Assembly: GCA_964503265.1 (NCBI GenBank)
Contig: CAZCYO010000003.1
Coordinates: forward strand, 155,575 to 219,574
DNA: 64,000 nt
DNA from: an uncultured Gammaproteobacteria bacterium
GTDB lineage: Bacteria > Patescibacteriota > Microgenomatia > Levybacterales > UBA12049
Direction: 5' to 3'
The notes below the pieces were generated by a model. The model was not told the DNA's origin and made no database searches. It saw only the letters and a list, made by a program, of their open reading frames with translations. A program made the position numbers and the translations under genes. Positions 7,918 to 63,494 of the stretch are shown piece by piece. The stretch's first letter is position 1, and the number at the start of each line of letters is the position of its first letter.

Positions 7918-7964
7918 GAGGATATTATACTACGCTTTCTGCGTGGTGCTATACTAAATCTATT

Positions 7965-8849: not shown

Positions 8850-8850
8850 T

Positions 8851-9180: not shown

Positions 9181-9230
9181 TTTCTCTCTTGAACTATTAA
9201 TAACCTTATAGTATTATCCCTATATCTTTT

Positions 9231-45944: not shown

Positions 45945-46283
45945 TTATTGTTTTCGAGATGTAATCATGATTTCCAGAACAATAAATAACGCGAGGAGTA
46001 ATATTAAGAAAATTGGACTCCTCAGGTAATTTAGTCTTAAAAGGAAGAATGTAACAGTAAATGAGCTTATCAAAATTCCATGAATAGCATTTTTCATTAT
46101 AATCCCACTGATAAAATAGGTAGAGATAAATAAGGTAAACAAAAATAGGTAGAGAGAAGGAATGTGAATCATCCAAATTTGAAAAGGGGTATGTGGAGAT
46201 TTAAATAGTAGGATACTCACACATGAAATGGTTGAGAGAATAGTTGCGACGCCATAAATAATTCGTTTTCTTTTTCGTTCCAT
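45945..46283 (-). CDS. Hypothetical membrane protein
   Basis: Three TM helices. It is preferred over the overlapping 45895..46176 ORF, which has odd composition. Confidence 0.35.
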   Translation of the reverse strand: MERKRKRIIYGVATILSTISCVSILLFKSPHTPFQIWMIHIPSLYLFLFTLFISTYFISGIIMKNAIHGILISSFTVTFFLLRLNYLRSPIFLILLLALFIVLEIMITSRKQ

Positions 46284-46316
46284 AAAGTAACTGTAGCAAA
46301 AAATACATCTGAGATC

Positions 46317-46353
46317 TTGACATTTTTTGGCAGTCTTGTTATTATATTGCTAA
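46317..46353 (+). promoter_or_regulatory. hrcA promoter (TTGACA-17-TATTAT) overlapping a degenerate CIRCE-like inverted repeat
   Basis: -35 TTGACA at 46317..46322, a 17-nt spacer and -10 TATTAT at 46340..46345. The element TTGGCAGTC-N9-TATTGCTAA at 46327..46353 resembles CIRCE (TTAGCACTC-N9-GAGTGCTAA) in its outer TTAGCA/TGCTAA arms. Confidence 0.5.
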
Positions 46354-46368
46354 TCGTGTTCATTAACC

Positions 46369-47100
46369 ATGATGCATAATCTAACACAACGTCAAATCGA
46401 AATTTTAAAAAGTGTCATCGAGGAATATATCGACACTGCTGAGCCTGTCGGATCAGAAACAATTGAGAAGAAGCATAACCTCAGTGCCTCTCCTGCGACT
46501 ATCCGAAACGAGATGGTTCACTTATCAAAGCTTGGTTATTTACAAAAGCCTCATTCTTCTGCTGGGAGAATCCCCACATCAGGAGGGATGAAATTTTATG
46601 TTAAAGAGTTAATGAAAGAGAAAGAGCTTTCAACGGCTGAAGAAGTTGCTTTAAAAGAAGGTGTTTGGGATTACAGGGAGCAAACACAAAAATTCTTAAA
46701 AGAAATTACAAAAGTACTTGCTGAAAAAACGAAAACACTTGCCATTGTTACTACAACTGAAGGAGAGATTATCTGTTCTGGATATGCAAATATTTTAGAT
46801 ATGCCTGAATTCTATGATATTGATATTACCAAGTCGTTATTAACTGCACTTGATGAATATGAATATTTCATGAATTTATTTCATCTTCCACGTGGAGAGG
46901 GAGATGTTCATGTCATAGTAGGCGATGATTTTACAGCGCCACTCCAAGGTCCATATGGAATTGTTTTTACAGACTATAATACTGGTACAAATCAAGGCCA
47001 AATTGGTGTAATCGGGCCTGTTCGATTACAATATACATCAATTATCCCGACATTACGCTATGTGAGTCATTTGATTCAGGATACAGCAAAAGGATGGTAA
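46369..47100 (+). CDS. hrcA: Heat-inducible transcription repressor HrcA (short, 243 aa)
   Basis: LTQRQIEILKSVIEEYIDTAEPVGSETI...ATIRNEMVHLSKLGYLQKPHSSAGRIPT is the HrcA winged-helix N-terminus. It is the first gene of the hrcA-grpE-dnaK-dnaJ operon. Confidence 0.9.
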   Translation: MMHNLTQRQIEILKSVIEEYIDTAEPVGSETIEKKHNLSASPATIRNEMVHLSKLGYLQKPHSSAGRIPTSGGMKFYVKELMKEKELSTAEEVALKEGVWDYREQTQKFLKEITKVLAEKTKTLAIVTTTEGEIICSGYANILDMPEFYDIDITKSLLTALDEYEYFMNLFHLPRGEGDVHVIVGDDFTAPLQGPYGIVFTDYNTGTNQGQIGVIGPVRLQYTSIIPTLRYVSHLIQDTAKGW

Positions 47101-47116
47101 GAGGGATATACTAAAT

Positions 47117-47608
47117 ATGAATGACGATAATAAAAAAGTAACAGAAGAAAAAGTTGAATCTGAAGCGAATGAAGAGATCACACAGCTTGAAGAGAAAAAT
47201 GTTGAACTGGAAAATAAATATCGCCGTGCGCTTGCTGATTATCAAAATCTAGAAAAAAGAGTCCGAGAAGAGCGAAGTGAATGGATCAAAAGTGCAAATC
47301 AACAATTATTGTTACGACTACTTCCAGCGCTTGATACAGTAATGCTTGCCGCACAACATACTGAAGACAAAGGAATTAAGGCAACAGTTGATCATTTTTT
47401 GAGTACACTAGCAGCAGAAGGTATTGAAAAAATAGATACAACTGATAAAGAATTTGATCCAAGTACCATGGAAGTGATTCAAACAATGGATGGTAAAGAA
47501 GGAAAAGTACTTCAAGAAGTACGTGCAGGTTACACATTATACGGAAAATTGCTACGGCCAGCACAAGTGATTGTCGGCCAGGAACAAAAAGAAGAAAGTA
47601 GTAATTGA
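47117..47608 (+). CDS. grpE: Nucleotide exchange factor GrpE
   Basis: A coiled-coil N-terminus (NKYRRALADYQNLEKRVREE) and a C-terminal beta domain (GKVLQEVRAGYTLYGKLLRPAQVIV). Confidence 0.9.
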   Translation: MNDDNKKVTEEKVESEANEEITQLEEKNVELENKYRRALADYQNLEKRVREERSEWIKSANQQLLLRLLPALDTVMLAAQHTEDKGIKATVDHFLSTLAAEGIEKIDTTDKEFDPSTMEVIQTMDGKEGKVLQEVRAGYTLYGKLLRPAQVIVGQEQKEESSN

Positions 47609-47672: not shown

Positions 47673-49568
47673 ATGGCAAAAATAATTGGTATTGATTTAG
47701 GAACAACAAATTCATGTGTCGCTGTCATGGAAGGTGGATCACCAAAAGTAATCCATTCTGCTGAAGGTAGAAATACTATCCCTTCAGTGGTTGACCCGAT
47801 TTCGCATGTTGTTGGAGATGTTGCAAAACGACAGATGGTGTTAAAGCCAAAGAGAACAATCTTCTCTGTTAAACGCCTTATGGGTCACAAGTTGCATGAT
47901 GAATCTGTTCAGTATGACATGAAATGGCTTCCATACACAGTTAAAGCAGGTCGTGATGACATGGCTGTGGTTGAAGTTGAAGGAAAAGAATTTACTCCTC
48001 AGGAAATCTCCGCACAAATATTACAGAAAATTAAAGCAGATGCCGAAAGCTATCTTGGTGAAAAAGTTACACAGGCAGTTATTACTGTTCCAGCGTATTT
48101 CGATGACAGTCAGCGTCAAGCAACGAAACAAGCTGGGGAAATTGCTGGACTTGAAGTTCTTCGTATTATCAATGAGCCAACTGCTGCAGCACTCGCATAT
48201 GGACTTGATCGAAAAGAATCTCATACGATTGCTGTGTATGATTTAGGTGGAGGAACCTTTGATATTTCTATTCTTGAACTAGGTGAAGGTGTTACAGAAG
48301 TAAAATCAACAAATGGTGATACACACTTAGGTGGGGATGACTTTGATCAGGTAATAATTGATTTTCTCGCTGATGAATTCAAAAAAGAACACAACATCGA
48401 TCTTCGAAAAGACTCTCAAGCACTGCAACGACTTAAAGAATCAGCAGAAAAAGCGAAGATTGAACTATCAAGTAGTCAAGAAGCTCAGATAAATCAGCCA
48501 TTTATTACTCAGGGAGCTGATGGTCCCCTTCACTTAACTATGTCGCTTTCTCGTTCAAAACTTGAAAGTTTAGTTGACGATCTTATTCAAAAAACGCTAA
48601 AGCCTGTAGAAAAAGCGTTAGCTGATGCCGGAATGAAAGCATCTGAAATTGGTGAGGTAGTCCTCGTTGGTGGGATGACCAGAATGCCAAAAATTGTTGA
48701 AACAGTCACGAAATTCTTTGGGAAAGAACCAAATAAATCTGTAAACCCAGATGAAGTTGTTGCAATTGGTGCAGCTGTTCAAGGTGGAGTTTTAGCAGGA
48801 GATGTAAAAGATGTATTGCTTCTTGATGTCACACCATTGACACTTGGAATTGAAACCATGGGAAGTGTCTCTACGCCTCTTATTAATCGAAACAGTACAA
48901 TCCCAACGTCTAAATCACAAGTATTTTCTACAGCAGCTGATAATCAAACGCAGGTAGAAATTAATGTTCTACAGGGTGAGCGTCCAATGGCAGCAGACAA
49001 TAAATCACTTGGTCGATTCGTCCTTGATGGTATTCCACCAGCACCTCGAGGTGTACCACAAGTTGAAGTCACATTTGATATTGATGCAAGTGGGATTCTC
49101 TCAGTTAAAGCACAAGATAAAGCAAGTGGAAAAGAACAAAGCATTAAAATTACTGGAAGTACTGGTCTTTCTAAAGAAGAAGTCGAGAAAATGACGAAAG
49201 AAGCAGAGATTCATGCTCAAGAAGATGCTGTGAAGAAGGAAAAGATTGAAGCAAAAAACGCAGCAGATTCTCTTATATTTACTGCTGAGAAATCACTGAA
49301 AGATGCTGGAGATAAGGTATCAGCAGAACTTAAAAGCGAAGTTGAAGAAAAAATAAAAGCACTTAAAGATATTCTTGATAGTGGTACAAAAGAAGATCTT
49401 GAAGCAAAAACATCAGAATTATCTGACTCACTACAAAAAGTAGGTCAAGCAATGTCTCAAAATCCATCCCAAGAAGCGCCAAAAGATTCTGAGCAAAAAG
49501 AAGAAACCAAAGATACAACTGGTAACGAAAAGAAAACGGATGCAGAAGAAGGGGAAGTCGTAGGATAA
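47673..49568 (+). CDS. dnaK: Molecular chaperone DnaK (Hsp70)
   Basis: [32 protein letters not shown] and a full substrate-binding domain and lid. Confidence 0.98.
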
Positions 49569-49603: not shown

Positions 49604-49625
49604 AGCGCGAAAGCGCTTTTTTTAT
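49604..49625 (+). terminator. Rho-independent terminator after dnaK
   Basis: The AGCGC-GAAA-GCGCT hairpin is followed by TTTTTTT. Confidence 0.7.
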
Positions 49626-49650: not shown

Positions 49651-50520
49651 ATGGCAACAAATACTGATTATTATCAATTACTAGGAGTTTCAAAAACTGC
49701 GACTGCTGATGAACTTAAAAAAGCATATCGTAAATTAGCATTGCAGTATCACCCTGATAAAAATAAAACGAAAGAGGGAGAAGCTAAATTTAAAGAAATT
49801 AACAATGCATATGAAGTGCTTTCAGATCCTCAGAAACGTCAAACATATGACTCTGTAGGACATTCTGCATATGAACAAGGCGGTGGTGGTAATCCTTTTA
49901 GTGGGGGACAAAATGGCCCATTTTCCTATACGTATACGAACGGTGGTGGAGCACAAGGGTTTGATTTTGGTGGATTTTCTGATCCTTTTGATATCTTCGA
50001 ACAATTTTTTGGTGGAGCATCTCCATTTGGAAGACAGACGAGACGGCAGGTTTACTCTATTACTATTTCGTTTGCTGATGCGGTTCATGGTGCTCAAAAG
50101 GAAGTTACGATCGATAATAAAAAAACAAAACTTAAAATCCCACCAGGTGTTGATCGTGGATCTCGAATTCGATTTAACGATTATGACGTTGTCATTGATG
50201 TGATTCCAGATAAGAAATTTCATAGAGAAGGTGCGGATATCGTGACAGATAAAGAAGTATCATTTGCGCAGGCAGTTATTGGAGTAGAAGCAGAAGTAGA
50301 GACGATTCATGGGATGGTAAAGATTAGAATACCAGCTGGAACACAGCCAGACACATTAATTCGTCTTTCTGGAAAAGGAATTTCACGGTTACAGGGTAGT
50401 GGTAAAGGTGATCATTATGTGCGTGTTCGAATTGTTATTCCAAAGTCAATTTCTAAAAAACAAAAAGAATTGCTCGAAGCATTTGAAAAAGAAAGTACGA
50501 CTAAAAAAAGTTGGTTTTAG
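49651..50520 (+). CDS. dnaJ: J-domain co-chaperone, DnaJ type II (CbpA-like; no CxxCxGxG zinc-finger repeats)
   Basis: A J domain with HPD ([33 protein letters not shown]), a Gly/Phe-rich region, then CTD I/II directly. No Cys-rich insert. Confidence 0.85.
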
Positions 50521-50577
50521 CCTCTAATTTTCTCCTCTCCGCTAGTATTTACAACGCAAATATACTACTATTATTAT

Positions 50578-50874
50578 ATGGCGCTTTGTACACCAACTGA
50601 AACACAAACAGAATTAGGATGCCTTCCCAATGATCCAGTTCAATTTATTGCTAAATTCTACAGTATTGGTTTGGGATTAATTGGAGGAGTCGGAATCCTT
50701 TTCATTATTTATGGTGGATATCTTATTATCACCTCTCAGGGAAATCCACTGAAACTTCAGCAAGGACAAGGGTATGTAAAATATGCAATTATTGGCATTC
50801 TGCTTGCAATTTTCGGATACGTGTTAGTACAAGTGATCATTGGTGATGTATTACAAATTCCTGGTTTTGGCTAA
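50578..50874 (+). CDS. Small two-helix membrane protein, VirB2/TrbC pilin-like topology (putative)
   Basis: A 98-aa protein. A polar N-terminus with 2 Cys, a hydrophobic helix 1 (IAKFYSIGLGLIGGVGILFIIYGGYLIITS), a short polar loop (QGNPLKLQQGQGY) and a hydrophobic helix 2 (AIIGILLAIFGYVLVQVIIG). Its stop is 2 nt before the next ATG. Confidence 0.45.
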   Translation: MALCTPTETQTELGCLPNDPVQFIAKFYSIGLGLIGGVGILFIIYGGYLIITSQGNPLKLQQGQGYVKYAIIGILLAIFGYVLVQVIIGDVLQIPGFG

Positions 50875-50876
50875 CT

Positions 50877-53800
50877 ATGAAAGTATTCCTGCCCTTTATT
50901 ATCATAGCATCTGTTCTTCTTGTTGTTCTGTCTCCTGGTGTTCAAAAATTGAATAGTACTGCAAATGCTCAAACTCCACCTGCAACTCCTTCTGTCTCCC
51001 CTTCACCAACATCTATCCCAGCAGGGGGTGGACTGGGCGTTCAGGATGCTGGCGCTCCTGATGGAACATGGGTGAAAGATCCCGATGTCACATTCGTTGG
51101 TAAAACAGCTGCACGTGCAGGTTCATTTCTTGATTGGTCACTCGCAAACTATAACTGGGTTTCCATAGGAGCAAATGATCCTAATCCGCTTGTTGATTTC
51201 TGGAGAAGCGTTCGAAATATTGTATACTCTTTCTTTTCGATTTTCGTACTTATCACCGCTTTCGTGATTATGATTACTCGAGGGAAAAATATAACTGTCA
51301 TGCGGTTTATTCCTCGTTTTATAGGCATAATTTTGCTTGTTACGTTCTCATTTGCACTCGTGCAGTTTCTGTATCAAGTTTTTGATATTATCCAAGGATT
51401 TTTTCTACGAAACCCTGAGTGTTATATCCCAAATCAACCTATGCCAGATTTTTGTACATCCGTCGGAGATAAAATCTCACAAGCAAACTTACTAAATATC
51501 GGATTTAACTATGCTGATTTTACTGGGTATAGACAGCTCGGGATGGGAAATGATGAATCAGCCATCATTACACTTCTTTTAACGAAGCTAACAGCAGTTA
51601 CCTATTATGTGATGGTTGGGGTGCTTATTGTCCGAAAAATAATTTTATGGTTTTTCATTATTATTTCTCCGATTTTTCCATTGCTACTACTCTATCGACC
51701 AGTTCGTAACACTGGGAAAATTTGGGTTGGGGAATTTTTCCGTTGGCTTTTGTATGCACCACTTTTTTCCGTGCTTCTTGCAGGACTGGTATCTCTTTGG
51801 AGAGCCGGCATTCCATTATTTCAATACGATGCCACTACAGGAGATATTATTTCTAAAGCAGTCGTTGATGGTGATAAGCAAGTCGTAGGTATTAATATGA
51901 TATACCCGACAGCAATAAATATTCTACTTGGAGGGCCTAAAGCAAATATCTCTCTTCAGAATAGTATTAATCTGCCTGAAACATTTGCGTTATATGTCAT
52001 TTGTTTGATTATGCTTTGGGTTGTCATTATTTTGCCCTTTATTCTTCTTCGAATATTTCTTGATTATGCTTTTTCAGTATCACTTGCTGAGAATAATTCT
52101 ATTAAACAAGTTATGTCCATGGCGAATTCATTTATTAATAAACCTCCATCTCCAACGTCTCCTGTTGGCCCTCAAACCCCACCTGCTGGTGCCGGACTTG
52201 CACGAGCACTCCCTTTTACTAAGCGCTTTACTGTTCCCGAAGGTGTTGCACGTACAATTTCACAAAGTAACGAAAGAAGTAGTAGTATCTCAAGAAATGC
52301 AGCAACAAGCACAAACACGAATACAAATACAAATACGTTTACCTCACGTATTGCTGAGAAACTAACTAACCGTACCCAAAGTAGATCTGTTAAAGAAACA
52401 TCTGAAATAACAAAATTAACTAACCTCTCTGTTCCAACAATGCGTGATATCGCTAAATATGAAACAGCACAATTGTCATCGAGTACTACGCAACGAAGTG
52501 AGGTAACTCAAGTTAATCAATCATTACAAAAAATTGCTAATCCAACACAAACTGCTACTCCAATTGAACGAGAAAGATATGTTCAAGTTCGAGAGAAATT
52601 AGTGACAGAAAGCCAGAAAGGAAATGTGCTTGCTACAACTATTCTGAACGCTGCAAATACTGTCTCTCACTCAAATATATCAAATCAAGCAGTTCATACC
52701 AACACAGCGGTTAAAACAGTGTTTAAACAGCTTGCAAATCCTGAACGAATTGCGAACCCAACGGAGCGTGATCAATATACACAAGTAAAAGGGAAAATTG
52801 AATCAGAAAACCAAAGCGGAAATCAGGTGGCTGCATCACTTTTGGCATATATTAATAATTTATCTGAAAACACCCTTGCATCGACGCAGAACATATCAGT
52901 CGATCATGTTCAGAAGTTTCTTAAGAATATATCCTCTCCAATTTCTATCACGGATAATACGACAAAAAATACCTACATGCAGCTTCGTGATCAGTTGCAA
53001 ACACAGAGTAAACAAGGAAATACGCTCGCTACAACTATTCTAAACCTTAGTTCTTCGACTAGCACTGCGAATCCAGATCAACTAACTGCTCTTAAAGACC
53101 AACTTGCGACAGCGCAAAAATCTGGTGATCCAATCGCTTCAAGCGTCCTCTCTACAGTTCAGAAAGAAGTAGGAGATGTAGATATTGATCAAGTAAGAGA
53201 GAAACTGGTACAAGCAAAAGCAAAAGGCGATAAAGTTGCTACAGTCTTACTTTCACTTGTCGATGCAAAACAACAAACAAATAAAACTACGACCGCATCA
53301 CCGTCTCTTCCAGTTGTAAATCGTCTTCAGACTGTGAGTCTTGATGATTATGAGGCTGTAAAGAAGACATGGAGAGAGAGTTATAAAGATGTCGATGTTC
53401 CTCAGAAACTCAATAAAGTTCAGTCACGTAAAGAATGGATTCAGAGTGATATCACTCAAATTAGTGGTACGATAAACCTTCTTTCATCACCTGATGCTGA
53501 AAAAAGAGCAGAAGGTATGAAAGAAGTTTCAGGGATATTGCCGTTCTTATTAATTGGAGGATTTTCTCAGACAGAAATTATCGCCTATCTTAAAGCAAAA
53601 CTCCAAGCAGCTAAAGATGTTTCAAGTGATATTGAAGAAAAAGACCAAGAAGAAGGTTCACTTGTTACTACTGAACGAAAAGCGACAGTTCAACCTCAAG
53701 TGATGCATATGACGACAGAGGCTAAAATGCCTGAAATAAAGACTAGCAGTGAGAAAAACGATCCGACTGATGACGAAATGTCATCACCACTGGAAACAGT

Positions 53801-55028
53801 TATGAGAAACAACAACGCTATACAGCCTACAATGACTACTCTACCAGTAACAAGTTCGATGAGTACGATGCCGGTAAATACTGCACCTAGTAATACTACA
53901 GTTTTGCAGCTCATTAATATTTCGATCCCTACTATGAAAGATATTGCGCGATTTGAGACAAATCACTTCGCTAATAATACTCAGTCAGCACCAGAAGTGG
54001 TAAAAATTCAAGAAACATTGCGTCAGATTTCTCAACCGACAGGTAATCCAGATTTAGCTGTCCAGCAAAAATATGTCGGAATTCGAGAGAAGCTCATTAC
54101 TCAGAGTAATAATGGTGATTCTCTCGCAACATCAATTCTCACAGCAGCAAATGCAATAACTGGAGGTGCAACACCAGTTGAATCACTTACATCATCGGAT
54201 CTTACTCAGGTAATCACTACACTCGCTCATCCTGAAACCATCACTGACCCAGCACAGAAAGAAAAAGTGATCCAACTTAAGGCATCACTCACGCAAGAAA
54301 AAGAACAAGGAAACCCTCTAGCTATACAGATGATGCAAGCTACTGAACAACCACAGTCAGAAGCTACTACCAATGAACTTAAAACGAAGCTGATTACTGC
54401 AAAAACTCAGAATAACCCTGTTGTAACCTCAATTATGTCTCTTATTCCGCCAAAAGGTGCAAGTGTCACACAAGCTGCTTCACCGATAAAATTACCTGAA
54501 ACTAATAGAGTTCAATCCGTAAGTGTTGAAGATTATGAAGCTGTTAAGAAAATATGGCAGGATAGTTACAAAACAGTTGCATTTCCACAAGAAGACGGAA
54601 AAGTTACCGATAGAAAAGATTGGATTGAACAAGATATGCATGAAATCACGGATACTATTGCACTACTGTCTTCTACAGAATCTGAAAAACAACAAGCAGG
54701 AATGAAAAAAGTATCTGAAATTCTGCCGTTCCTATTAATAGGTGGGTTTTCTGAGTCTGAAGTCACAACATATCTTAAAGCAAAACTCGAAGCAGCTAAG
54801 ATGGTTTCCTCAGAGCTTGATGAAAAAGAACAAGAAGAGGGTTCATTACTTGATAGGGAACAAAAGGATGTTGATCAGCCAAAAGCGATGGTAACTGAGG
54901 AAAAAAATGAAATTGAAGTAAAACCTCCTATCACTCAATCTATGCAAACAATTGGTGGGACAATGACCGTTCCTAATAAATCTTCAGTAATACTTGACGA
55001 TCTTAAGCAAAACAGTCAGAATGAGTAA
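50877..55028 (+). CDS. Giant (1383 aa) envelope protein with a polytopic VirB6/TrbL-like membrane block and two ~480-aa tandem repeats
   Basis: A signal/TM segment, then a Pro/Ser linker, then 6 or more TM helices over residues ~110-400. A ~950-aa hydrophilic region follows, built of two divergent repeats. Each starts L(T/Q)N(L/I)S(V/I)PTM(R/K)DIA(K/R)(Y/F)ET and ends ILPFLLIGGFS(Q/E)(T/S)E(I/V)..YLKAKL(Q/E)AAK...EEGSL. Confidence 0.5.
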   Translation: MKVFLPFIIIASVLLVVLSPGVQKLNSTANAQTPPATPSVSPSPTSIPAGGGLGVQDAGAPDGTWVKDPDVTFVGKTAARAGSFLDWSLANYNWVSIGANDPNPLVDFWRSVRNIVYSFFSIFVLITAFVIMITRGKNITVMRFIPRFIGIILLVTFSFALVQFLYQVFDIIQGFFLRNPECYIPNQPMPDFCTSVGDKISQANLLNIGFNYADFTGYRQLGMGNDESAIITLLLTKLTAVTYYVMVGVLIVRKIILWFFIIISPIFPLLLLYRPVRNTGKIWVGEFFRWLLYAPLFSVLLAGLVSLWRAGIPLFQYDATTGDIISKAVVDGDKQVVGINMIYPTAINILLGGPKANISLQNSINLPETFALYVICLIMLWVVIILPFILLRIFLDYAFSVSLAENNSIKQVMSMANSFINKPPSPTSPVGPQTPPAGAGLARALPFTKRFTVPEGVARTISQSNERSSSISRNAATSTNTNTNTNTFTSRIAEKLTNRTQSRSVKETSEITKLTNLSVPTMRDIAKYETAQLSSSTTQRSEVTQVNQSLQKIANPTQTATPIERERYVQVREKLVTESQKGNVLATTILNAANTVSHSNISNQAVHTNTAVKTVFKQLANPERIANPTERDQYTQVKGKIESENQSGNQVAASLLAYINNLSENTLASTQNISVDHVQKFLKNISSPISITDNTTKNTYMQLRDQLQTQSKQGNTLATTILNLSSSTSTANPDQLTALKDQLATAQKSGDPIASSVLSTVQKEVGDVDIDQVREKLVQAKAKGDKVATVLLSLVDAKQQTNKTTTASPSLPVVNRLQTVSLDDYEAVKKTWRESYKDVDVPQKLNKVQSRKEWIQSDITQISGTINLLSSPDAEKRAEGMKEVSGILPFLLIGGFSQTEIIAYLKAKLQAAKDVSSDIEEKDQEEGSLVTTERKATVQPQVMHMTTEAKMPEIKTSSEKNDPTDDEMSSPLETVMRNNNAIQPTMTTLPVTSSMSTMPVNTAPSNTTVLQLINISIPTMKDIARFETNHFANNTQSAPEVVKIQETLRQISQPTGNPDLAVQQKYVGIREKLITQSNNGDSLATSILTAANAITGGATPVESLTSSDLTQVITTLAHPETITDPAQKEKVIQLKASLTQEKEQGNPLAIQMMQATEQPQSEATTNELKTKLITAKTQNNPVVTSIMSLIPPKGASVTQAASPIKLPETNRVQSVSVEDYEAVKKIWQDSYKTVAFPQEDGKVTDRKDWIEQDMHEITDTIALLSSTESEKQQAGMKKVSEILPFLLIGGFSESEVTTYLKAKLEAAKMVSSELDEKEQEEGSLLDREQKDVDQPKAMVTEEKNEIEVKPPITQSMQTIGGTMTVPNKSSVILDDLKQNSQNE

Positions 55029-55040
55029 AGATGATATAAG

Positions 55041-57890
55041 ATGCCACTTGTAGTGGTTTCTGCCCATTATATCGATATGTTAGGAAATTTATTTAATCAA
55101 AAAAAAACAGTTGACGTAGTTGAGAATCCATCACAGGATACTTCACAGATATCTATGACTGCTTCTTCTCCTATTCAGTCTGATCAAGTTATTGCAGCCC
55201 AACAGAATTCACAGACTGTTATACCTCAATCAGATACAACTCAGCCAGTAGTCGGTTCTTCAATAGATCCAGTCAAGAGACAAGATATGTCTGCGCTTTC
55301 ACATCTGGATAACCGTGCATTACAAGCGTTAACTCATGCTCAGGAAGAAGCAAAACGAATAAAGCAGCAAATGATTGAACCAGAACTTTTGTTGTATGGC
55401 TTATTATTTGACCAAGAAATTTTTGCACTTCTTGAACAATTTCATGTCGATGCTGCGAAACTTACGAAAGAAATTCAGGAAAAAGAAACAGAGGGAACTT
55501 TCATTGGTGAACCAACGCTGAGTGATGGTGCAAAACAAATCTTTGAAACAGCATACAGTGAAGCAAAAAAACGAAATGTATCTTTTGTCTCCGCAGAAGA
55601 TTTATTAATAGCCTTATTCTCATCATCATCCAGTTCTGCTTTTCTTAACGCAGAAGGACTACAAAAAGAGGTTGTTATGGAAAAACTAACCAAGAATCCA
55701 CATTTCCAAACAGGCAAATCTTCAGTACTTGATCAATTTGGGGTAGATTTAACGCAGGAAGCAAGAGATGGAAAACTTGATCCAATTTTTGGACGTGATA
55801 AAGAAATTGAGCGACTTGAGCATATCTTACTTCGTCGCTCAAAGAATAACCCAATTATCATAGGAGAAGCGGGTGTTGGGAAAACTGCAATTATTGAAGG
55901 ATTAGCACAGCAAATTGTAAAAGGAGAAGTTCCCCAGGATTTAGCAAATAAAAGAATAATTCAACTCGATGTTTCGTCTCTCGTAGCAGGTGCATCACAT
56001 AGAGGTGAATTTGAAGAACGGCTTCGAAGTGTTATTAAAGAATCTATGATGTCTAACGGTCAAATCGTATTATTTATAGATGAAATTCATACACTTATGG
56101 GAACGGGAGATAGTGACGGTGCGCTTGATGCATCAAACATCATTAAACCACATTTAGCTCGAGGTCATTTGCAAATTATTGGAACAACAACGACCGCAGA
56201 ATATCGAAAATATTTTGAAAAGGATAAAGCGTTTGAACGACGATTCCAGCCAATTCTATGTGAGGAACCAAGTGAAGAGGTTGCGATTGGTATGCTCGCC
56301 ATTCTGAAAGGAAAATATGAAAAGTTCCATTCTGTCGTAATGCCCGATGATGCCTTAGCTGCTGCTGTACACTTATCTAAAAAATATATTGGAGAACGAT
56401 ATTTACCAGATAAAGCAGTTGACTTGCTTGATGAGGCTGCAGCTGATGTTAAACTCCAACATGCTGCTGGAAAAAGGCAAGACAATACAGTTAACAAATC
56501 AGATATTGAGAAAGTTGTTAGTACGTGGACAGGGATTCCAATAACGAAATTAACTGAAGATGAAAGTCAAAAACTGCTCCATATAGATGACTTGATCCAT
56601 AAACGATTAATAGGTCAAGAAGAAGCTGTTACCGCAGTTGCTGAAGCAGTAAGGCGAGGTCGAATCGGATTAGCCCCTGCAAACAGACCAATTGCTTCGT
56701 TTATTTTCTTAGGCCCAACAGGTGTTGGTAAAACAGAACTAGCTAAAACTCTCGCTGAAATCTTATTTGGAAAAGACGATTTAATGGTACGACTTGATAT
56801 GAGCGAATACATGGAGAAGCACGAAGTTGCAAAACTTATCGGTGCACCTCCAGGATATGTTGGGTATGAAGAGGGTGGACAGTTAACAGAAGCAGTTCGT
56901 GCAAAGCCATACTCAATCGTTCTTCTCGATGAAATTGAAAAAGCGCATCCAGATGTATTTAATATTCTTCTGCAACTTCTCGAGGATGGAAGACTAACTG
57001 ATAATAAAGGAAATACTATTTCATTTAAAAATACTATTGTTATTGCGACTTCAAATATTGGGAGTGCACTTATCCAACAAGAACTCAGTAAAGAGACGAA
57101 ATCAAAAGAAGAATTTGAAAAAAACTTCTCAGAACTCCATGGACTCATCAACCAGGAGCTTCATAAATTCTTTAAACCAGAACTCTTGAATCGTTTTGAT
57201 GAAGTGGTTATCTTTAAACCATTGATGCTCAAAGATATGTCGATGATTGCCAAAAATAACATTGGCACAACCGCTAAATTACTTCAGGAGCAAGGATTCG
57301 ATTTGCAAATTACTCAAAGAGCCCTAGAGCAATTAGGAAAAGAAGGATATGATCCAGTATACGGTGCACGGCCACTTCGACGATTGATCCAAACAGTTAT
57401 TGAAAACCCGATCGCACTCCTTCTGATTAATAAAACATTTGTTATTGGAGATACTATTCTTGTTGACTATGATGTACAGAAAACACAATACAGTTTTGCA
57501 AAAGGTGCCCCAAAATCAGCTAATCCTGTAGATGGTACTGCTAAAAATGAATTAGTTTCTCAACCAACAGATGGACAAACTGTTTCACAAAGCTCATCGG
57601 TTTCTGCATCTGGAATTTCAAATACACCAGTGTCTACAGATAGCTCAAATCAAATACAACAACCAAATGTATCAGGTACTCAACTTCAGAATTCTCAAGC
57701 ATCAGTTACGTCTCAAGACGCTTCCCAAATGCCTCAACCTTTATCTACTATTCCTGCTGCACCCGTGAGTACAAATAATGTAACTGGTTCTCTTATGCCG
57801 AATCTTTCACTATCACAGGTACAAACACCACCATCTGTAGATCCTTCTATTCCTGAAAATAATACTACAGTGCAAACAGCGACATCGTAA
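55041..57890 (+). CDS. Clp/Hsp100 double-AAA+ ATPase (ClpA/ClpC-like, no M-domain) with Q/S/T-rich disordered N- and C-terminal tails
   Basis: Clp_N repeats (LDNRALQALTHAQEEAKRIKQQMIEPELLLYGLL), D1 Walker A GEAGVGKTA, D2 Walker A GPTGVGKTE, and a sensor-2 GARPLRR. Only ~20 aa separate D1 and D2. The ClpP-docking IG(F/L) loop is not evident (NIGSA). A ~130-aa low-complexity C-tail. The start is ambiguous: 55041, or the internal Met at 55287. Confidence 0.8.
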   Translation: MPLVVVSAHYIDMLGNLFNQKKTVDVVENPSQDTSQISMTASSPIQSDQVIAAQQNSQTVIPQSDTTQPVVGSSIDPVKRQDMSALSHLDNRALQALTHAQEEAKRIKQQMIEPELLLYGLLFDQEIFALLEQFHVDAAKLTKEIQEKETEGTFIGEPTLSDGAKQIFETAYSEAKKRNVSFVSAEDLLIALFSSSSSSAFLNAEGLQKEVVMEKLTKNPHFQTGKSSVLDQFGVDLTQEARDGKLDPIFGRDKEIERLEHILLRRSKNNPIIIGEAGVGKTAIIEGLAQQIVKGEVPQDLANKRIIQLDVSSLVAGASHRGEFEERLRSVIKESMMSNGQIVLFIDEIHTLMGTGDSDGALDASNIIKPHLARGHLQIIGTTTTAEYRKYFEKDKAFERRFQPILCEEPSEEVAIGMLAILKGKYEKFHSVVMPDDALAAAVHLSKKYIGERYLPDKAVDLLDEAAADVKLQHAAGKRQDNTVNKSDIEKVVSTWTGIPITKLTEDESQKLLHIDDLIHKRLIGQEEAVTAVAEAVRRGRIGLAPANRPIASFIFLGPTGVGKTELAKTLAEILFGKDDLMVRLDMSEYMEKHEVAKLIGAPPGYVGYEEGGQLTEAVRAKPYSIVLLDEIEKAHPDVFNILLQLLEDGRLTDNKGNTISFKNTIVIATSNIGSALIQQELSKETKSKEEFEKNFSELHGLINQELHKFFKPELLNRFDEVVIFKPLMLKDMSMIAKNNIGTTAKLLQEQGFDLQITQRALEQLGKEGYDPVYGARPLRRLIQTVIENPIALLLINKTFVIGDTILVDYDVQKTQYSFAKGAPKSANPVDGTAKNELVSQPTDGQTVSQSSSVSASGISNTPVSTDSSNQIQQPNVSGTQLQNSQASVTSQDASQMPQPLSTIPAAPVSTNNVTGSLMPNLSLSQVQTPPSVDPSIPENNTTVQTATS

Positions 57891-57894
57891 TAGT

Positions 57895-60606
57895 ATGGAA
57901 GAGAATACCGCACCTATAGAACCACTTGTTAATCAGGTTCCACAAGACTCTCCACCAAAAATATCAAAAAAAATAATCTTTGTAATTGGAGCAGTTTTTT
58001 TAGTGTTTATTTTTTTCGTCTTTAGTATGCTCCTTTCATCTCAAGTTGCTAAAAAGACCTCTCTAAAGCCAGATACTACGACTAAAGATATATCAGTTGT
58101 CTCGCCAGGTGCTCGCAGATGGCAAATACTTCTTTCCTACAATCCAACTCAACAGGACTTGCAGCTTAAATCAATTGCTATTGAAAAAGGAGAAGCTGCT
58201 CCACTGTCAGTTAGTAACTCAGTATATCTATTACGTGTTTTTGATAAGGCTAAGAAAAAGATTTACGAAACACCAATCGCAGTTTCTGAAGCTGTTCTGT
58301 ATGATATTTATGTTCCATCGAGTGGGGGAAAAGTTATTTCGCTTCCAAAGCAACCACGAAGTTTCGATACAACAATTACCATTCCATATCTTTCAACGGC
58401 AGATTCAATTCAAGTTAGTAAAAATGCTGCTGTTGTTTTAGAGTTCGCTCCACCAAAAGAGATAAGCTTGCATGTTATTCCTCAAGCGTATGCAGAAACA
58501 CCTGCCTGTAAAGCACTAACTGTACTATTTATTAGTGATGGGTATACAGATAAAGCTAAATTTGAAAGTGATGCATTAAAAATACAAAACATCTTAACTG
58601 GAGTCGCACCTTATAATACTGAAGCAAATAAAGCTATATTTAATTTTAAAACAGTTTGGAATACGAATTCATTGAAATGTATCTCAAGTGGGAAGCTTGA
58701 TTCTCGTTGTGTTATCACTGCCGAAACACAATCTGCAGCGAAAACAGCTGCCGGCTCTCTCGCTGAAACAGCTCTGAATAAATATATTATTCTTGCTGAT
58801 GCTTCTCCAGAGCTGATAGGAACGGTTCCACCAAGTGGTGATACTAGTAATATGCCAAAGATTCTCGGTGCTGCAAGTGGAGCTGGTGGAGATTTTGCAG
58901 TCGTGCAAACGCGTGATGCTGCGACTACCAATGCAAGTACGGTTCATGAGATAGGTGGACATGCGATTGGACAACTCTATGATCGATATGTTGATGATCA
59001 GGATTACGCTGGATTAAGTCTTGGGCCACATAGTAACTGTTCGGATAGTGCAACAGTACATACAGGATGGGTTGGAAATGCATATAAAGGATGTACAAAA
59101 TCTACGTGGTATGCGCCTGCTCCGACAGCTGATCCTGTACAATTTCCTGCTTGTGGACCTGGAGGGGTACTTCTTTCTGGTGGAACACCGGATACTGTTA
59201 TGAGTGCTGCTGGGTGTTTTAGCGCGCCATTAGCTAAATTCGATGCTGCTGAAACCTCCTGGATAGATAATCTTCTAAAAAGTAATTATGAACCTTATCA
59301 ATCTTGTATAGATCGAGCGAAAGTTGTGACACAGTCTCCATCAACACTTACACCAACAGTTCCGACAACTAGTAACGCTTCGTTACCACCAATGGCTACA
59401 AAAATCGAGCAGTGTCCAGCTAAACCTGCTGCTGGATCGCCAGGAACAGTAGAGCCTGGAACAAGGAACTTAAGCTACAACGATAACAACGATCCAGAAA
59501 TTTTATTTGGTCATTACATTGATAGTATAAATCGGACAGACTTGTACTACACTGCTGGCCAAGCAAATATCGAAGCAAGATGGGCAGGTAGTAAAATCCG
59601 CAATCCTGCTAACGGTGAATATCGAGGAATGTATTATGTGCGTGCAGGACGTCCTGGAGGATTTGAACATGCTGGGGGATATGTCTATGATCCTGCATAT
59701 GACTGGGCAACCCCTTACGGTGAAGGACATTATGCAGAAAGTGGGTGGAGTCATGCGATGGGAAGAACTGGGGAAGCAGAAAAAGGATCTTTGGGACTAA
59801 CCAAAGACAGAAATTGTATCTTAGCTACTCAAATTCAACGACTGATTGGTGAAAATACGAATGACAGTGGTAATAATTCGTATTATACAGGGAGTAAGAT
59901 GTGGTATCGGGTCGATACACGTCCAGCACCTCCTACGAGTGAAGCAAATTCAGTTATTAAGATTCATGCAACAGGAAGTGGTATTAATGGAGGATGGTAT
60001 CCTACAATGGCTCTTTATATAGATCAATATAAAGTTAAAACATGGAAAAACTTTGGTAAAAACCCAAAACCTGGTGATATTTATACATACCCTGATCCAA
60101 ATGATCCTGCAGATGCAAATGTGCGAATTGGTAAAGTTGAACCACACCGTGTCATTATTGGGATTGATGATAGTAGATTTGATAACGATGATGGAGTAGG
60201 AAAAGTTAATAGCATGGTTTTGTATGGGATCAATATTGATGGGAAAGACTATTCAAGTGTGGCAGATACGACATTTCATGCTACGACATATGTCGATAAG
60301 ATTCAGTCATGTGTAGCAATCCCAGGCAAAGAGTTTGATCATAGTGCAACAGGAGGGTGGTTCTGGTGTGGATATTTCTGGTTTGATTATAAAAATGCCT
60401 TAACAGATCGTTATACAAGTCCGACATTATTTAAAGACATAAGTGCAGATGGTTCAAAAGGTACAGGTACAGCTCTTGGAGGTTCTGAAGCGGGGAACGG
60501 TACATCAAAAGCCAAACAGCAATATTATACTTGCTCTGCTGACCCAGCATGTAAAGCTGGCAAATTAGGTGTTCAGTTATGCGCATTAAAGTGCGTTCCT
60601 AAGTAG
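57895..60606 (+). CDS. Large membrane-anchored secreted protein with putative M64-like zinc-metallopeptidase motif
   Basis: An N-terminal TM helix. The internal GAASGAGGDFAVVQTRDAATTNASTVHEIGGHAIGQLYDRY resembles the M64 (IgA-peptidase) GGG...HExGH...L.DEY core, with one extra Gly. The C-terminus is Cys-rich. Confidence 0.45.
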   Translation: MEENTAPIEPLVNQVPQDSPPKISKKIIFVIGAVFLVFIFFVFSMLLSSQVAKKTSLKPDTTTKDISVVSPGARRWQILLSYNPTQQDLQLKSIAIEKGEAAPLSVSNSVYLLRVFDKAKKKIYETPIAVSEAVLYDIYVPSSGGKVISLPKQPRSFDTTITIPYLSTADSIQVSKNAAVVLEFAPPKEISLHVIPQAYAETPACKALTVLFISDGYTDKAKFESDALKIQNILTGVAPYNTEANKAIFNFKTVWNTNSLKCISSGKLDSRCVITAETQSAAKTAAGSLAETALNKYIILADASPELIGTVPPSGDTSNMPKILGAASGAGGDFAVVQTRDAATTNASTVHEIGGHAIGQLYDRYVDDQDYAGLSLGPHSNCSDSATVHTGWVGNAYKGCTKSTWYAPAPTADPVQFPACGPGGVLLSGGTPDTVMSAAGCFSAPLAKFDAAETSWIDNLLKSNYEPYQSCIDRAKVVTQSPSTLTPTVPTTSNASLPPMATKIEQCPAKPAAGSPGTVEPGTRNLSYNDNNDPEILFGHYIDSINRTDLYYTAGQANIEARWAGSKIRNPANGEYRGMYYVRAGRPGGFEHAGGYVYDPAYDWATPYGEGHYAESGWSHAMGRTGEAEKGSLGLTKDRNCILATQIQRLIGENTNDSGNNSYYTGSKMWYRVDTRPAPPTSEANSVIKIHATGSGINGGWYPTMALYIDQYKVKTWKNFGKNPKPGDIYTYPDPNDPADANVRIGKVEPHRVIIGIDDSRFDNDDGVGKVNSMVLYGINIDGKDYSSVADTTFHATTYVDKIQSCVAIPGKEFDHSATGGWFWCGYFWFDYKNALTDRYTSPTLFKDISADGSKGTGTALGGSEAGNGTSKAKQQYYTCSADPACKAGKLGVQLCALKCVPK

Positions 60607-60773: not shown

Positions 60774-63494
60774 TTATCGTTTAATAACGAATTGTAGATA
60801 ACAGCTTGCTCTCTGCGTAATTTCTCCAGGATAATACGAGTTAATTTGGAGAGATTTGGCAGGTGTTGGTGTTGGGATTGGTGCAGGTGCGATCGATTCG
60901 CCTAGGATTGTACGAATCGGTTCAGTGATTTTATTTATGATCTTCGCAAAAAGCCCAGTATTTGATTTCGCTGGGACAATGGCTAGTATTTTTGGTTGAC
61001 AGTCCATATCTGCGACTACACGGAAGAGGTCTCCATTGTTTGCATTAGCTGGGACCGTGTAATCCCATATTGTTTGATATCTGACTTTTGTAGTTGTTGA
61101 TTCGATAACACTTGGTGAGATAAACCCAGACTTTGCAATTTCATCTTGAATCTCTGCTCCACCTCTAAATACTCTAATATTGACACCTTTAACAATTGCA
61201 CTTAGTACATCTGCCCCTTCAACTTTAGAATATGCTGTAAAGGTTACTTTTTGGCCCGTTCCTATAGCTGATGCAGTGATTCCATCACATTTGCATGCTC
61301 CTGCATTAAACGGAAGCTGGCATTTACCTCCCAGACAGCTCACACAACCATCTTTTGTGGCAGCACCTGCACAATCACTGTCTCTTGAGCATGACACGCC
61401 ACAAGCTGCTACAGAGCATTTGCCAGTGGTTGAGTTACAGGTATTACAGCCACCAGGTGCTGTTGCACAGTCTCCTGTTGTTGAACAACTAGTTCCACAA
61501 GCTGGAGGAGGTGAGCATTTTCCGGCACTATTACAAACAGTACAGCCACTTTGTCCACCAGCACAATCGGCATTGTTAGAGCAGGTTGAGTTACACGATG
61601 GGGCAACTTTGCATTTCCCAGCTGTACATGTGGTACATCCATTCTGTCCCCCCGCACAGTCAGCATTATTGGAACATGCTGCGTCACATGCTGGAGCAGG
61701 TGAGCATTTCCCAGCGCTGTTACACACTGTGCATCCGTTTTGTCCACCAGTACAGTCTGCGTTGTTAGAACATGTTGCATTACAAGCAGGGCCAGCTTTG
61801 CATTTCCCAGCTGTACATGTGGTACATCCATTCTGTCCCCCAGCACAATCAGCATTATTAGAACAACTTGCATTACAGGCTGGCGCTGGATTTTGGCATG
61901 TACCTGCAGTTCCAGGAGCTGTCATGCATTTGGCTAAATCAGGATGAGCTGGAGAGGTACCAAATGTATAGAGTTGCTGAAGAAAGTCACCTCGTTTAAT
62001 TGTAGTTCCCCAAGGATTAATAGGAGTACTTCCAGTAAAGTAATCTGTTTTTTCAATACCTTTGAAACCATATACCCAGTTTCCTTCAGGATCAAAACAT
62101 TTAACGGTTGCATCAGCTGAATAATATGGATCTCCCGGCTGATAAATACTATTACAAGGAGCACCAGATATAAATCCTTTGTTATATGCAGTCTCGATTT
62201 CTTTCGTAAGATCACCAAGAGGAACGTCTTTAAAGATTCCTCCAGTTGGGGTACTCCACGTCCAGTGTCGTGAATCAGAAGCTGCTATAGCATCGACATG
62301 ATATCGTGCGATAAATGCGACAGCAAATTTTCTGGTTGTTGGAAATTCACCACCAAGATAGCCATCAGGTGGTGTTTTAGAAAGATCCATACCCGCACAC
62401 GAACTTCCAGCCGGACATGTCGCTTCGCTATATCCTTGGACGACACAATATGCTTTGTTTAAACATTCAGCGGCAAGACGATATGCGGCATTCGCGTATG
62501 TAGGTTCACGAGGGGTGCCATTTGAAAGAAGTGATGCAAAATTTCTTTTACAACTGGAACCTGTAAGTTTAGTGAAATCTAATTCTGGTGCAGGAGAACT
62601 GCTTGGCTTACACGTAGTACAGCCATCTGTAGCTAGTGCACACTGTGTTGTATTCGTACAGGCTGAATTACACGCAGCAACAGTAGGAGGCGTTGGTGTA
62701 CTGGTAGCTGCTACTGCAGGTGCTGCCATACAGAGACTAAGGTCTTGATGAGTAGGATCAATTCCGTATTTATAGAGTTGTTCTAGAAAAGCTCCGCGTG
62801 TCATAGATGCTCCAGCAGCACTAAAGTTATAACAAGCACCTTGCCAGCATTCTTCAGCTGGGTGTGGAGTAGGGTTTTTATCATCAAACGAACCTTTTCT
62901 ATATACTCCGTGAAAACCAAATAGCCATGGATCTTCTGGAGAGAATGCAGGCTTTTGTCCATTTGCAGCTACTTGTCCACTAATGAGTTTATAATGAGCT
63001 GCCGTTTCAATTTCTTGTCCAAGATCAGTTCCAAGTGGAACATCACTAAATACTGTGCCAGTAAACGGTTGGGGAGTCCAATCTTTCAAGACCTTTGTAT
63101 GATAGTGTGCGATAAATGCGACGGCGAATTTTCGAGAGGTTGTAATATCACCACCAAAAGAAGGAAATGGTAATCCCAGAGTGTCTCCCGACGTTTTATC
63201 AAATCCTTGAGTTACACAGTATGTTTGATTTAAACAGAATACTGGAACCTTATATGATTTTGTAGAGGATGCAGGAAGATCATTGAAATCTACGCGACAA
63301 CCTGTTTGTGGAAAGTTCGATGTGATTGGAATTAATTCTCCTGCTGCACGTTGGCGGATGTCTTGGACTTGGTTTAATACAAATACGGTCAGAGGGATAC
63401 TGAGAATGAGAGCGGCAAGTCCAAGGGGTTTTGTGTACTGCTTTATTGTATCGAAAATATGGCGAGATTTACGTATTACAATTTTTCGTTCCAT
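60774..63494 (-). CDS. Large cell-surface protein: signal/TM helix, two duplicated SLH-like domains, an array of 27-32-aa six-Cys repeats and a C-terminal beta domain
   Basis: FSDVPLGTDLGQEIETAAHYKLISGQ and FKDVPLGDLTKEIETAYNKGFISG are SLH-like (F.DV...a..aI......G.I.G). There are at least seven repeats of the type PACNA(S/T)CSNNADCAGGQNGCT(T/V)C(T/N)(A/S)(A/G)KC. Confidence 0.6.
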   Translation of the reverse strand: MERKIVIRKSRHIFDTIKQYTKPLGLAALILSIPLTVFVLNQVQDIRQRAAGELIPITSNFPQTGCRVDFNDLPASSTKSYKVPVFCLNQTYCVTQGFDKTSGDTLGLPFPSFGGDITTSRKFAVAFIAHYHTKVLKDWTPQPFTGTVFSDVPLGTDLGQEIETAAHYKLISGQVAANGQKPAFSPEDPWLFGFHGVYRKGSFDDKNPTPHPAEECWQGACYNFSAAGASMTRGAFLEQLYKYGIDPTHQDLSLCMAAPAVAATSTPTPPTVAACNSACTNTTQCALATDGCTTCKPSSSPAPELDFTKLTGSSCKRNFASLLSNGTPREPTYANAAYRLAAECLNKAYCVVQGYSEATCPAGSSCAGMDLSKTPPDGYLGGEFPTTRKFAVAFIARYHVDAIAASDSRHWTWSTPTGGIFKDVPLGDLTKEIETAYNKGFISGAPCNSIYQPGDPYYSADATVKCFDPEGNWVYGFKGIEKTDYFTGSTPINPWGTTIKRGDFLQQLYTFGTSPAHPDLAKCMTAPGTAGTCQNPAPACNASCSNNADCAGGQNGCTTCTAGKCKAGPACNATCSNNADCTGGQNGCTVCNSAGKCSPAPACDAACSNNADCAGGQNGCTTCTAGKCKVAPSCNSTCSNNADCAGGQSGCTVCNSAGKCSPPPACGTSCSTTGDCATAPGGCNTCNSTTGKCSVAACGVSCSRDSDCAGAATKDGCVSCLGGKCQLPFNAGACKCDGITASAIGTGQKVTFTAYSKVEGADVLSAIVKGVNIRVFRGGAEIQDEIAKSGFISPSVIESTTTKVRYQTIWDYTVPANANNGDLFRVVADMDCQPKILAIVPAKSNTGLFAKIINKITEPIRTILGESIAPAPIPTPTPAKSLQINSYYPGEITQRASCYLQFVIKR
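61330..61940. repeat. Tandem DNA repeat array (unit ~81-96 bp, 192-bp higher-order unit) encoding the six-Cys modules
   Basis: Near-identical copies at ~61600..61680 and ~61792..61872 (ttgcatttcccagctgtacatgtggtacatccattctgtcc...). Related copies occur every ~83-96 bp. The array produces the spurious ORFs 61180..61947(+) and 61409..61873(-). Confidence 0.75.

Follow-up and report, generated by a model that had tools for sequence, protein, structure and literature searches.

A pilin, an extended VirB6-family protein and an Hsp100 ATPase encoded side by side in Levybacteria: candidate parts of the Patescibacteria type IV secretion system

Patescibacteria carry a type IV secretion system (T4SS) with a pilin, a machine that is established and essential in Southlakia (PMC10633639, PMC12102498, PMC12857230). 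Its published description is that of an MPF-FATA-like system whose pilins resemble VirB2 (Wang et al. 2023, PMC10633639; Quiñonero-Coronel et al. 2025, PMC12102498), and an origin-proximal neighbourhood of its genes is known (PMC12102498). VirB6 was found to be "scarce" in Microgenomatia, "suggesting extreme sequence divergence" (PMC12102498), and for two Levybacteria genomes VirB4, TrsD, two VirB2 pilins and a type IV coupling protein (T4CP) are listed, as well as VirB1 in one of the two, and no VirB6 (PMC12102498, Tables S1 and S3). "Extended VirB6" proteins with large hydrophilic domains are a recognised class, yet an unexplained one (PMC12857230). Here, we describe a locus within a 64,000-nucleotide (nt) stretch of contig CAZCYO010000003.1 (assembly GCA_964503265.1; the whole stretch is called the window below), in which the genes for a VirB2/TrbC-type pilin, a giant VirB6-family protein and an Hsp100/Clp ATPase follow one another. 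On balance, we consider it probable that the pilin and VirB6 are parts of the Patescibacteria T4SS, encoded in a leaderless operon with the Clp near dnaK, and that the Clp has been recruited to the channel. This reading draws on homologies, domain losses, an operon with a promoter motif, conservation of the gene order, repeats shared by two of the proteins and the recurrent placement of the Clp gene beside T4SS genes.

As in the described Patescibacteria T4SS, the genes are of the monoderm type, chromosomal and free of a relaxase, they include a PF18895 pilin and a VirB6-type polytopic protein, and relatives of the VirB6 gene adjoin PrgI(VirB3), TrsD and VirB4 genes near dnaA. Unlike in those systems, the pilin and VirB6 genes stand apart from VirB4, in an operon with an Hsp100 gene by dnaK. 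This VirB6 family in Microgenomatia is not mentioned in PMC10633639, PMC12102498 or PMC12857230, and full-text literature searches returned nothing relevant on VirB6 with Hsp100 or on Levybacteria with type IV secretion. Hence, while the initial annotation of the locus as a system not yet described overlooked the pilin-bearing T4SS of Patescibacteria, we found no description of the Microgenomatia VirB6 family, of its modular tail or of an association between T4SS and Clp/Hsp100. The main features of the locus are as follows.

50563..50571, plus strand: promoter motif TACTACTAT of an extended -10-like kind (in the family, the consensus is TGCTACGAT); the pilin ATG follows 6 nt after its end.
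50578..50874, plus strand: VirB2/TrbC-type T4SS pilin, 98 amino acids (aa), assigned by Pfam PF18895 and an ortholog alignment.
50877..52286, plus strand: VirB6/TrbL-like membrane domain, residues 1-470 of the giant protein, with a signal peptide, an external segment of ~80 residues and a transmembrane (TM) block at residues 113-392.
52407..53705, plus strand: C-terminal module copy 1 of the giant protein, residues ~511-943, delimited by self-comparison and family consensus.
53901..54890, plus strand: C-terminal module copy 2, residues ~1009-1338, a tandem duplicate of copy 1.
55041..57890, plus strand: Hsp100/Clp double-ring AAA+ unfoldase, 949 aa, assigned by Pfam/NCBIfam, an alignment with ClpC and motifs.

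Four co-directional, tightly spaced open reading frames (ORFs) are indeed present on the plus strand, as initially annotated, at 50578-50874, 50877-55028, 55041-57890 and 57895-60606 (98, 1383, 949 and 903 aa). The ATG of the 1383-aa ORF lies 2 nt past the pilin stop, and the 903-aa ORF starts 4 nt past the Clp stop. The best database matches are "Candidatus Levybacteria" and metagenome-assembled genomes of Patescibacteria, which places the source of the window among Levybacteria-type Microgenomatia. Conservation of the arrangement was followed in a Levybacteria set of 82 non-redundant loci (45-68% identity, ~80 species-level genomes), a recurrence far beyond what chance would give. The pilin gene is located 5' of VirB6 in 79 of the 82 loci and the Clp gene 3' of it in 68 of the 70 loci with room for it, both exceptions being a lone VirB6 paralog. 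DnaK is encoded 5' of the trio in 61 of 64 loci. The position of dnaJ varies, as it precedes the trio in 41 loci and comes after Clp in 27, additional genes separate dnaJ from the pilin gene in L003, L017, L060 and L084, and the gene content 3' of the trio differs between loci, so that the breakpoints fall around the trio and not inside it. In one locus (L070), no dnaK operon lies closer than 10 kilobases (kb) to the trio.

The first gene encodes what we identify by sequence as a VirB2/TrbC-type T4SS pilin, in agreement with the initial annotation. It matches Pfam T4SS_pilin (PF18895) with 27.5 bits against a gathering cut-off of 26.6, over profile positions 6-71 of 71, and the homolog in L116 scores 33.1 bits with this profile; the NCBIfam pilin-like family Mbov_0395, from a Mycoplasma integrative and conjugative element (ICE), scores 32.4 bits, under the cut-off of 40. 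The window pilin has a polar head with Cys-x10-Cys, two hydrophobic helices, a short basic loop and a C-terminal IPGF, and in an alignment of 80 orthologs the head (C-x9-11-GC[IL]P.DP), both helices, the loop and the IPGF end are all conserved. Most orthologs start 1-3 residues ahead of the first Cys, the window pilin 3 residues ahead of it. Signal-peptidase processing of this protein had been raised at the outset; the window pilin has no signal peptide, as an in-frame stop lies upstream, and ~10 orthologs carry a classical one. No Shine-Dalgarno sequence was seen upstream of the pilin ATG in the window. Instead, 52 of 80 loci have the promoter motif (allowing <=2 mismatches) with the in-frame ATG no more than 15 nt behind it, and the spacing is exactly 6 nt in 29 of these 52, compared with a chance expectation of 0.15 motifs per 130 nt. 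The trio therefore appears to have its own promoter and a leaderless mRNA, which would make it a transcription unit distinct from dnaKJ.

The second gene encodes a protein with a signal-peptide-like N-terminus, hydrophobic segments at residues ~113-133, 146-176, 231-251, 257-272, 288-310 and 369-392, and ~990 hydrophilic residues after the TM block. Based on hydropathy and the helices of an AlphaFold2 (AF2) model, the block consists of five TM helices and one short hydrophobic re-entrant segment. TrbL/VirB6 is the only Pfam family that matches it (15 of 33 orthologs at E<=0.01, best 1.6e-7), and PF04610/PF19590 annotations have been precomputed for some relatives in the database. In addition, the fold of the AF2 model matches the solved TrwI/VirB6 of R388, while a search of the VirB6-family profile against PDB sequences gave nothing relevant (best E 2.4, unrelated coiled coils). 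The VirB6 identity is independently supported by relatives that occupy VirB4 gene clusters. For example, the 33%-identical family member P0257 lies in the order PrgI(VirB3)-TraC-like(TrsD)-VirB4-dnaN-dnaA-rnpA-yidC-jag-VirB6, which is the origin-proximal arrangement published for Patescibacteria (PMC12102498), and divergent members adjoin VirB4/T4SS genes in L086/L090/L091, L152 and L167, in the last two at <=10 kb from VirB4-cluster genes. The VirB6/TrbL-like TM block proposed initially is thus borne out by the fold match and by at least five TM helices, though not by the Pfam score of the window protein itself, which is given below. The family is large: a 50%-clustered library contains 835 members at E<=1e-3, of which 323 reach E<=1e-30, and the best 150 of them listed are close relatives. 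We assign the giant protein to it as an "extended" VirB6, and the family is the obvious candidate for the subunit missing from the published Levybacteria T4SS lists. Like other extended VirB6 proteins (the Rickettsiales Rvh paralogs and TraG of the F plasmid), it has at least five hydrophobic helices and then a large C-proximal hydrophilic domain; unlike them, it has a family-specific amplifiable tail of repeats and an end domain, and its sequence is too divergent for the Pfam cut-off.

Two further observations concern the surroundings of VirB6-family genes. A lone paralog of ~1125 aa (L067:10001-13381, L083:9902-13273) has no pilin, Clp, dnaK or T4SS genes as neighbours and is followed by two secreted subtilases (Peptidase_S8). 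A family of exported proteins, signal-anchored and with a conserved C-terminal "CKPA(V/I)YLYP" domain without Pfam match (e.g., L006:12366-13757), is encoded between VirB6 and Clp in nine loci (L006, L008, L016, L018-L020, L022, L023 and L045), with relatives in L003, L017, L048, L052, L062, L063, L089, L101, L147, L148, L152 and L153. This family, which the window lacks, recurs beside genes of the VirB6 family in several lineages and may be an accessory T4SS component.

The hydrophilic tail, initially described as ~950 aa of surface-exposed repeats, turned out to be a tandem duplication of a module that is usually single. The two copies share 40% identity in self-comparison (E 1e-67), and each is built of a part with the motif "LSxPTMRDIAKYET", a part with 3-5 helical repeats of ~45 residues (ANP..P.ER..Y....KL..E.Q.GN.LA..IL) and a conserved end domain of ~110 residues (VSLDDYE.VKK.W...ILPFLLIGGFS..E...YLKAKL). 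Most orthologs have one module, the median length being 791 aa, and elsewhere the module is amplified further, so that the protein reaches 2147 aa in L060 and the longest library member 3266 aa, giving a family range of 700 to 3266 aa. Neither Pfam nor PDB contains a match to the module. When all ORFs of 90 sequences were inspected, the repeats were restricted to VirB6-family ORFs and six Clp ORFs, and the end domain to the VirB6 family. The six Clp proteins (L070, L071, L074, L077, L079 and L081) have a C-terminal tail of 270-630 residues made of these repeats (E 1e-22 to 1e-36) and neither a signal peptide nor a TM segment. Among 120 Clp homologs outside Levybacteria, the long tails contained no VirB6-type repeats. 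Since loop charges over 33 VirB6 orthologs fit an N-out, C-in topology and since the same repeats occur on a soluble ATPase, the tail is most likely cytoplasmic, contrary to the surface exposure initially proposed. The inferred topology is also the one reported for A. tumefaciens VirB6 by Jakubowski et al. in 2004.

The third gene encodes a class I Hsp100, a double-ring unfoldase as initially annotated, in the order disordered Q/S/T N-tail, Clp_N, D1, D2, D2-small and a disordered tail of 135 residues that is also rich in Q/S/T. Pfam finds Clp_N, AAA, AAA_lid_9, AAA_2 and ClpB_D2-small, the Walker A/B motifs are intact (residues 275/344 and 558/627), the D2 pore loop reads PPGYVG, and the D1 pore loop AGASHRGEFE has a His where ClpB has a Tyr. 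In the PDB, it comes closest to ClpC of S. aureus and ClpB of T. thermophilus (E about 1e-208). Alignment with S. aureus ClpC revealed two losses. SKETKSKEEF stands opposite the "AGF" loop of ClpC, which leaves no ClpP-docking (I/L/V)-G-(F/L) loop and agrees with the initial annotation. Furthermore, the adjacent residues 478/479 align to ClpC 410/466, so the M domain is absent. In ClpB, the M domain is a coiled coil inserted in D1 that couples the protein to DnaK. The motifs flanking this site are 33-39 residues apart in 55 of 60 Levybacteria orthologs and 80-89 in 115 of 115 others; a short, ClpC-like M domain persists in the orthologs outside Levybacteria and was lost in Levybacteria. A Microgenomatia-wide Clp orthogroup is marked by the His pore loop, which 66 of 73 orthologs from Levybacteria and 114 of 120 homologs from other Microgenomatia have. 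A conserved N-terminal motif, MxGxLFN, suggests that the real start of the window Clp may be Met13 (nt 55077).

The protein resists assignment to the named Hsp100 classes. It scores 892 bits with the NCBIfam ClpB model (cut-off 1232) and 684.8 bits with ClpV/TssH (cut-off 884.95), and it misses the ClpA and ClpC-like cut-offs as well. The Clp_N domain and the two AAA+ modules, whose Walker motifs are intact, are common to it and to ClpB and ClpC/ClpA. It differs from ClpB and ClpC in having no M domain, from ClpC and ClpA in having no ClpP-docking loop, and further in the D1 His for Tyr, the long disordered tails and the VirB6-type repeat tail found in six species. By analogy, ClpV, the dedicated Hsp100 in type VI secretion systems (T6SS), appears closest, although membership tests failed for ClpV just as for ClpB and ClpA/ClpC. 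Both are double rings of the ClpB family without a ClpP loop that are encoded among secretion-system genes, and ClpV acts on components of the system rather than in general proteolysis, a role that is presumed for the Clp described here. In contrast to ClpV, its partner genes belong to a T4SS, with no T6SS genes seen in the window or related loci, and it keeps no remnant of the M domain.

Variants of the Clp gene were also observed. In L068:9685-13295 and L084:14037-17359, it is split into adjacent ORFs, N-D1 and D2, exactly at the expected M-domain site. Of 22 loci with room for it, 15 encode a second Clp-like paralog 3-6 kb 3' of the trio (e.g., L002:18211-20607 and L006:18787-21174); in the window, its expected position is beyond the window end. 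Two TM helices stand at its N-terminus, the Walker A/B motifs of its D1 are degenerate (GEAGSGRGE; no DE), and both the D2 pore loop (no GYVG) and the M domain are missing. This AAA+ protein, membrane-anchored and probably half-dead, could be a partner or anchor of the active Clp.

Outside Levybacteria, Clp orthologs stand by T4SS genes in several arrangements. In L116, the order VirB6-Clp-pilin follows a T4CP gene and a TraC-like gene, and in L147 VirB6 is found by the dnaA region, followed by a gene for a 692-aa protein and Clp. In L170 (Gottesmanbacteria) and L171, Clp is divergent from PrgI-TraC-like-VirB4 across a gap of 190-300 nt, and in L172 its flanks hold two pilins and a VirB6-like gene. 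A truncated ORF divergent from PrgI in L086 was also considered as a Clp and rejected, as its sequence motifs make it look NAD-synthetase-like. The L116 region (4016-9804) contains a VirD4-like coupling protein, a nitroreductase, a tyrosine recombinase and a TraC-like gene just upstream of VirB6-Clp-pilin, and this copy might be on or beside an integrated element. Taken over all loci, the genomic pattern tips the scales slightly towards a functional coupling of Clp to the T4SS genes.

If so, the following mechanism could be envisaged. The pilin would insert N-out without a signal peptide and VirB6 would insert N-out, C-in, and the partners of both would be VirB4, TrsD and VirB3, whose genes lie elsewhere. 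In the cytoplasm, the long tail of helical repeats on VirB6 would form an amplifiable docking scaffold, to which the Clp hexamer, freed from DnaK coupling and from ClpP, would be recruited. Its D2 motor may then unfold protein substrates and feed them to the channel, or else extract and recycle pilin. The proximity of dnaKJ may serve joint expression with chaperones able to hold substrates in an unfolded state, unless it is a historical accident. A more specific version, in which the Microgenomatia Clp, as a dedicated component of an essential episymbiont T4SS, is seated on the VirB6 tail and unfolds substrates or extracts and recycles pilin as the counterpart of ClpV, is offered tentatively, as a possibility less likely than the broader one. 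Such a Clp could supply the unfolding role of a coupling protein, which is reportedly non-essential in the one Patescibacteria T4SS studied genetically.

Several points weigh against assigning the trio to the T4SS with Clp as its partner. On the side of VirB6, the window protein scores 18.9-20.4 bits with Pfam TrbL (PF04610), missing the cut-off of 25.9, and the AF2 model of its VirB6 domain has moderate confidence (pLDDT, the predicted local distance difference test, 62.6). On the side of Clp, contact with VirB6, the pilin or a substrate is a conjecture from genome comparison; "Clp" is not mentioned in PMC10633639, PMC12102498 or PMC12857230, nor a chaperone in the first two, and no T4SS is known to use an Hsp100. 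The genes might simply be coincidental neighbours, with Clp as a general Hsp100 chaperone among heat-shock genes and the adjacency owed to inherited synteny or a shared expression level, an explanation that we judge rather unlikely. It would fit the position of the locus straight after hrcA-grpE-dnaK-dnaJ, the DnaK gene upstream of nearly all trios, and the conservation of the flanking metG-tatD-hrcA order in the clade; since synteny is generally well kept there, adjacency within Levybacteria alone is weak evidence. Clp orthologs occur throughout Microgenomatia, two of five Clp-centred loci (L173 and L174) have no T4SS gene nearby, and Clp is adjacent in only 2 of 80 VirB6-centred loci outside Levybacteria. 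In L147, L170 and L171, the proximity could be explained by a shared location near the origin, as both gene sets lie near dnaA. Moreover, no other Hsp100 seen in these loci has the full set of features, the nearby paralog having a degenerate D1 and no pore loops; the orthogroup of this Clp may be the only full Hsp100 of the cell and so a housekeeping chaperone. The repeat-bearing tails may go back to a single evolutionary event. Yet, loss of the DnaK-cooperating M domain would be odd for a disaggregase of the dnaK operon, and the trio has its own promoter motif and stays intact where dnaJ switches side or the dnaK operon is absent. Coincidence also leaves aside that the VirB6-tail repeats appear on Clp in six species and nowhere else, and that Clp orthologs abut T4SS genes in four other lineages, in different orders and outside the dnaK context. 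We retain as the more probable reading that the pilin and VirB6 belong to the T4SS, with the Clp recruited to it.

The initial annotation had envisaged a self-contained attachment or translocation organelle of four genes, in which Clp replaces VirB4/VirD4 and the repeats are a surface adhesin. The spacing and shared direction of the four genes agree with this, as does the absence of VirB4 from the window, where a search found no VirB3, T4CP, relaxase, integrase or repeat boundary either. Exported proteases or exported unknown proteins are frequent near VirB6-family genes, and large hydrophilic domains have precedent in extended VirB6 proteins (PMC12857230). We nevertheless regard such an organelle as improbable. 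Levybacteria genomes have VirB4, TrsD, two further VirB2 pilins and a T4CP elsewhere (PMC12102498), which speaks against a replacement and makes the locus look like a detached part of that T4SS rather than a self-contained machine. In addition, VirB6 relatives reside in classical VirB4 clusters, the loop charges favour a cytoplasmic C-terminus, the repeats recur on a soluble ATPase, and the fourth gene is seldom present, as detailed below. A remnant of an integrated conjugative element with decaying mobile genes, suggested by the sub-threshold match of the pilin to the Mycoplasma ICE family and by the integrase and T4CP near the homologous genes in L116, receives almost no credence from us. 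The GC content is flat across the window locus (~0.38) and the window has no boundary of an element; intact ORFs at the same chromosomal position in ~80 species argue for long-term vertical inheritance under selection, by which a remnant is essentially refuted.

Few machines have been shown to be essential when Patescibacteria live as epibionts, and the T4SS is among them. The locus supplies a candidate for the VirB6 that the published survey did not find in Microgenomatia, presents a VirB6 with an amplifiable scaffold that would be cytoplasmic, and suggests that T4SS genes have a recurrent partner in the genome, an Hsp100 unfoldase. Should the two be coupled, this would provide a testable handle on the preparation of substrates for export and the first Clp-type ATPase assigned to a T4SS. 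Should they not be, annotation would still gain a new family of VirB6, a leaderless promoter for a pilin and an Hsp100 without M domain.

Downstream of the trio, the fourth gene and, upstream, the heat-shock genes provide the context of the locus.

46369-47100, plus strand: hrcA, from ORF and translation; context, outside the trio.
47117-47608, plus strand: grpE, from ORF and translation; context, outside the trio.
47673-49568, plus strand: dnaK, from ORF and translation; context, outside the trio.
49651-50520, plus strand: dnaJ, from ORF and translation; context, outside the trio.
57895..60606, plus strand: membrane-anchored protein of 903 aa with a weak M64-like stretch, co-directional with the trio and outside the conserved unit.

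The 903-aa protein had been taken for a secreted M64-like protein, which is a weak assignment. It scores 20.2 bits with Pfam Peptidase_M64 (cut-off 26), over profile positions 8-73 of 302, and contains no HExxH zinc motif, the only candidate being HEIGGH. M64-like homologs are encoded 3' of the trio in just 11 of 59 loci, with an M4 protease or unrelated genes elsewhere. Hence, of the four genes first grouped together, pilin, VirB6 and Clp are kept across the Levybacteria genomes, and the M64-like gene is not a member of the conserved trio.

The same order of heat-shock genes, with Pfam matches to HrcA, GrpE, HSP70 and DnaJ, is seen in related loci. A strong promoter-like site precedes hrcA in the 46170-46368 region (TTGACA-17-TATTAT with TG, 46317-46345), and a terminator-like hairpin lies 3' of dnaK (49604-49617). 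Despite the hrcA gene, no match to the operator CIRCE (controlling inverted repeat of chaperone expression) was found in the entire window with <=3 mismatches allowed; an 8-nt A/T palindrome overlapping the hrcA promoter-like site is the only inverted repeat there. The rest of the window consists of ordinary chromosomal genes, e.g., recA, RNase Y, tRNA synthetases, MurB and Obg, and these housekeeping flanks together with the flat GC content mark the locus as a resident chromosomal feature. A known defence system was considered and rejected, as the PADLOC matches were to generic AAA+ domains only.

Three other genes or gene pairs of the window deserve mention. At 30064-33028 (plus strand), an ATP-citrate-lyase-like pair, Citrate_bind/ATP-grasp followed by CoA-ligase/Citrate_synt, is unexpected for a metabolically reduced Patescibacteria genome. 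At 34951-37221 (plus strand), a class I lysyl-tRNA synthetase of 756 aa has a B3_4 domain fused to its C-terminus. Finally, at 60774-63494 (minus strand), a protein of 906 aa without Pfam match contains ~8 tandem Cys-rich repeats (ACN.(S/T)CSNNADCAGGQNGCT.C..GKC) and is probably secreted or located at the surface.

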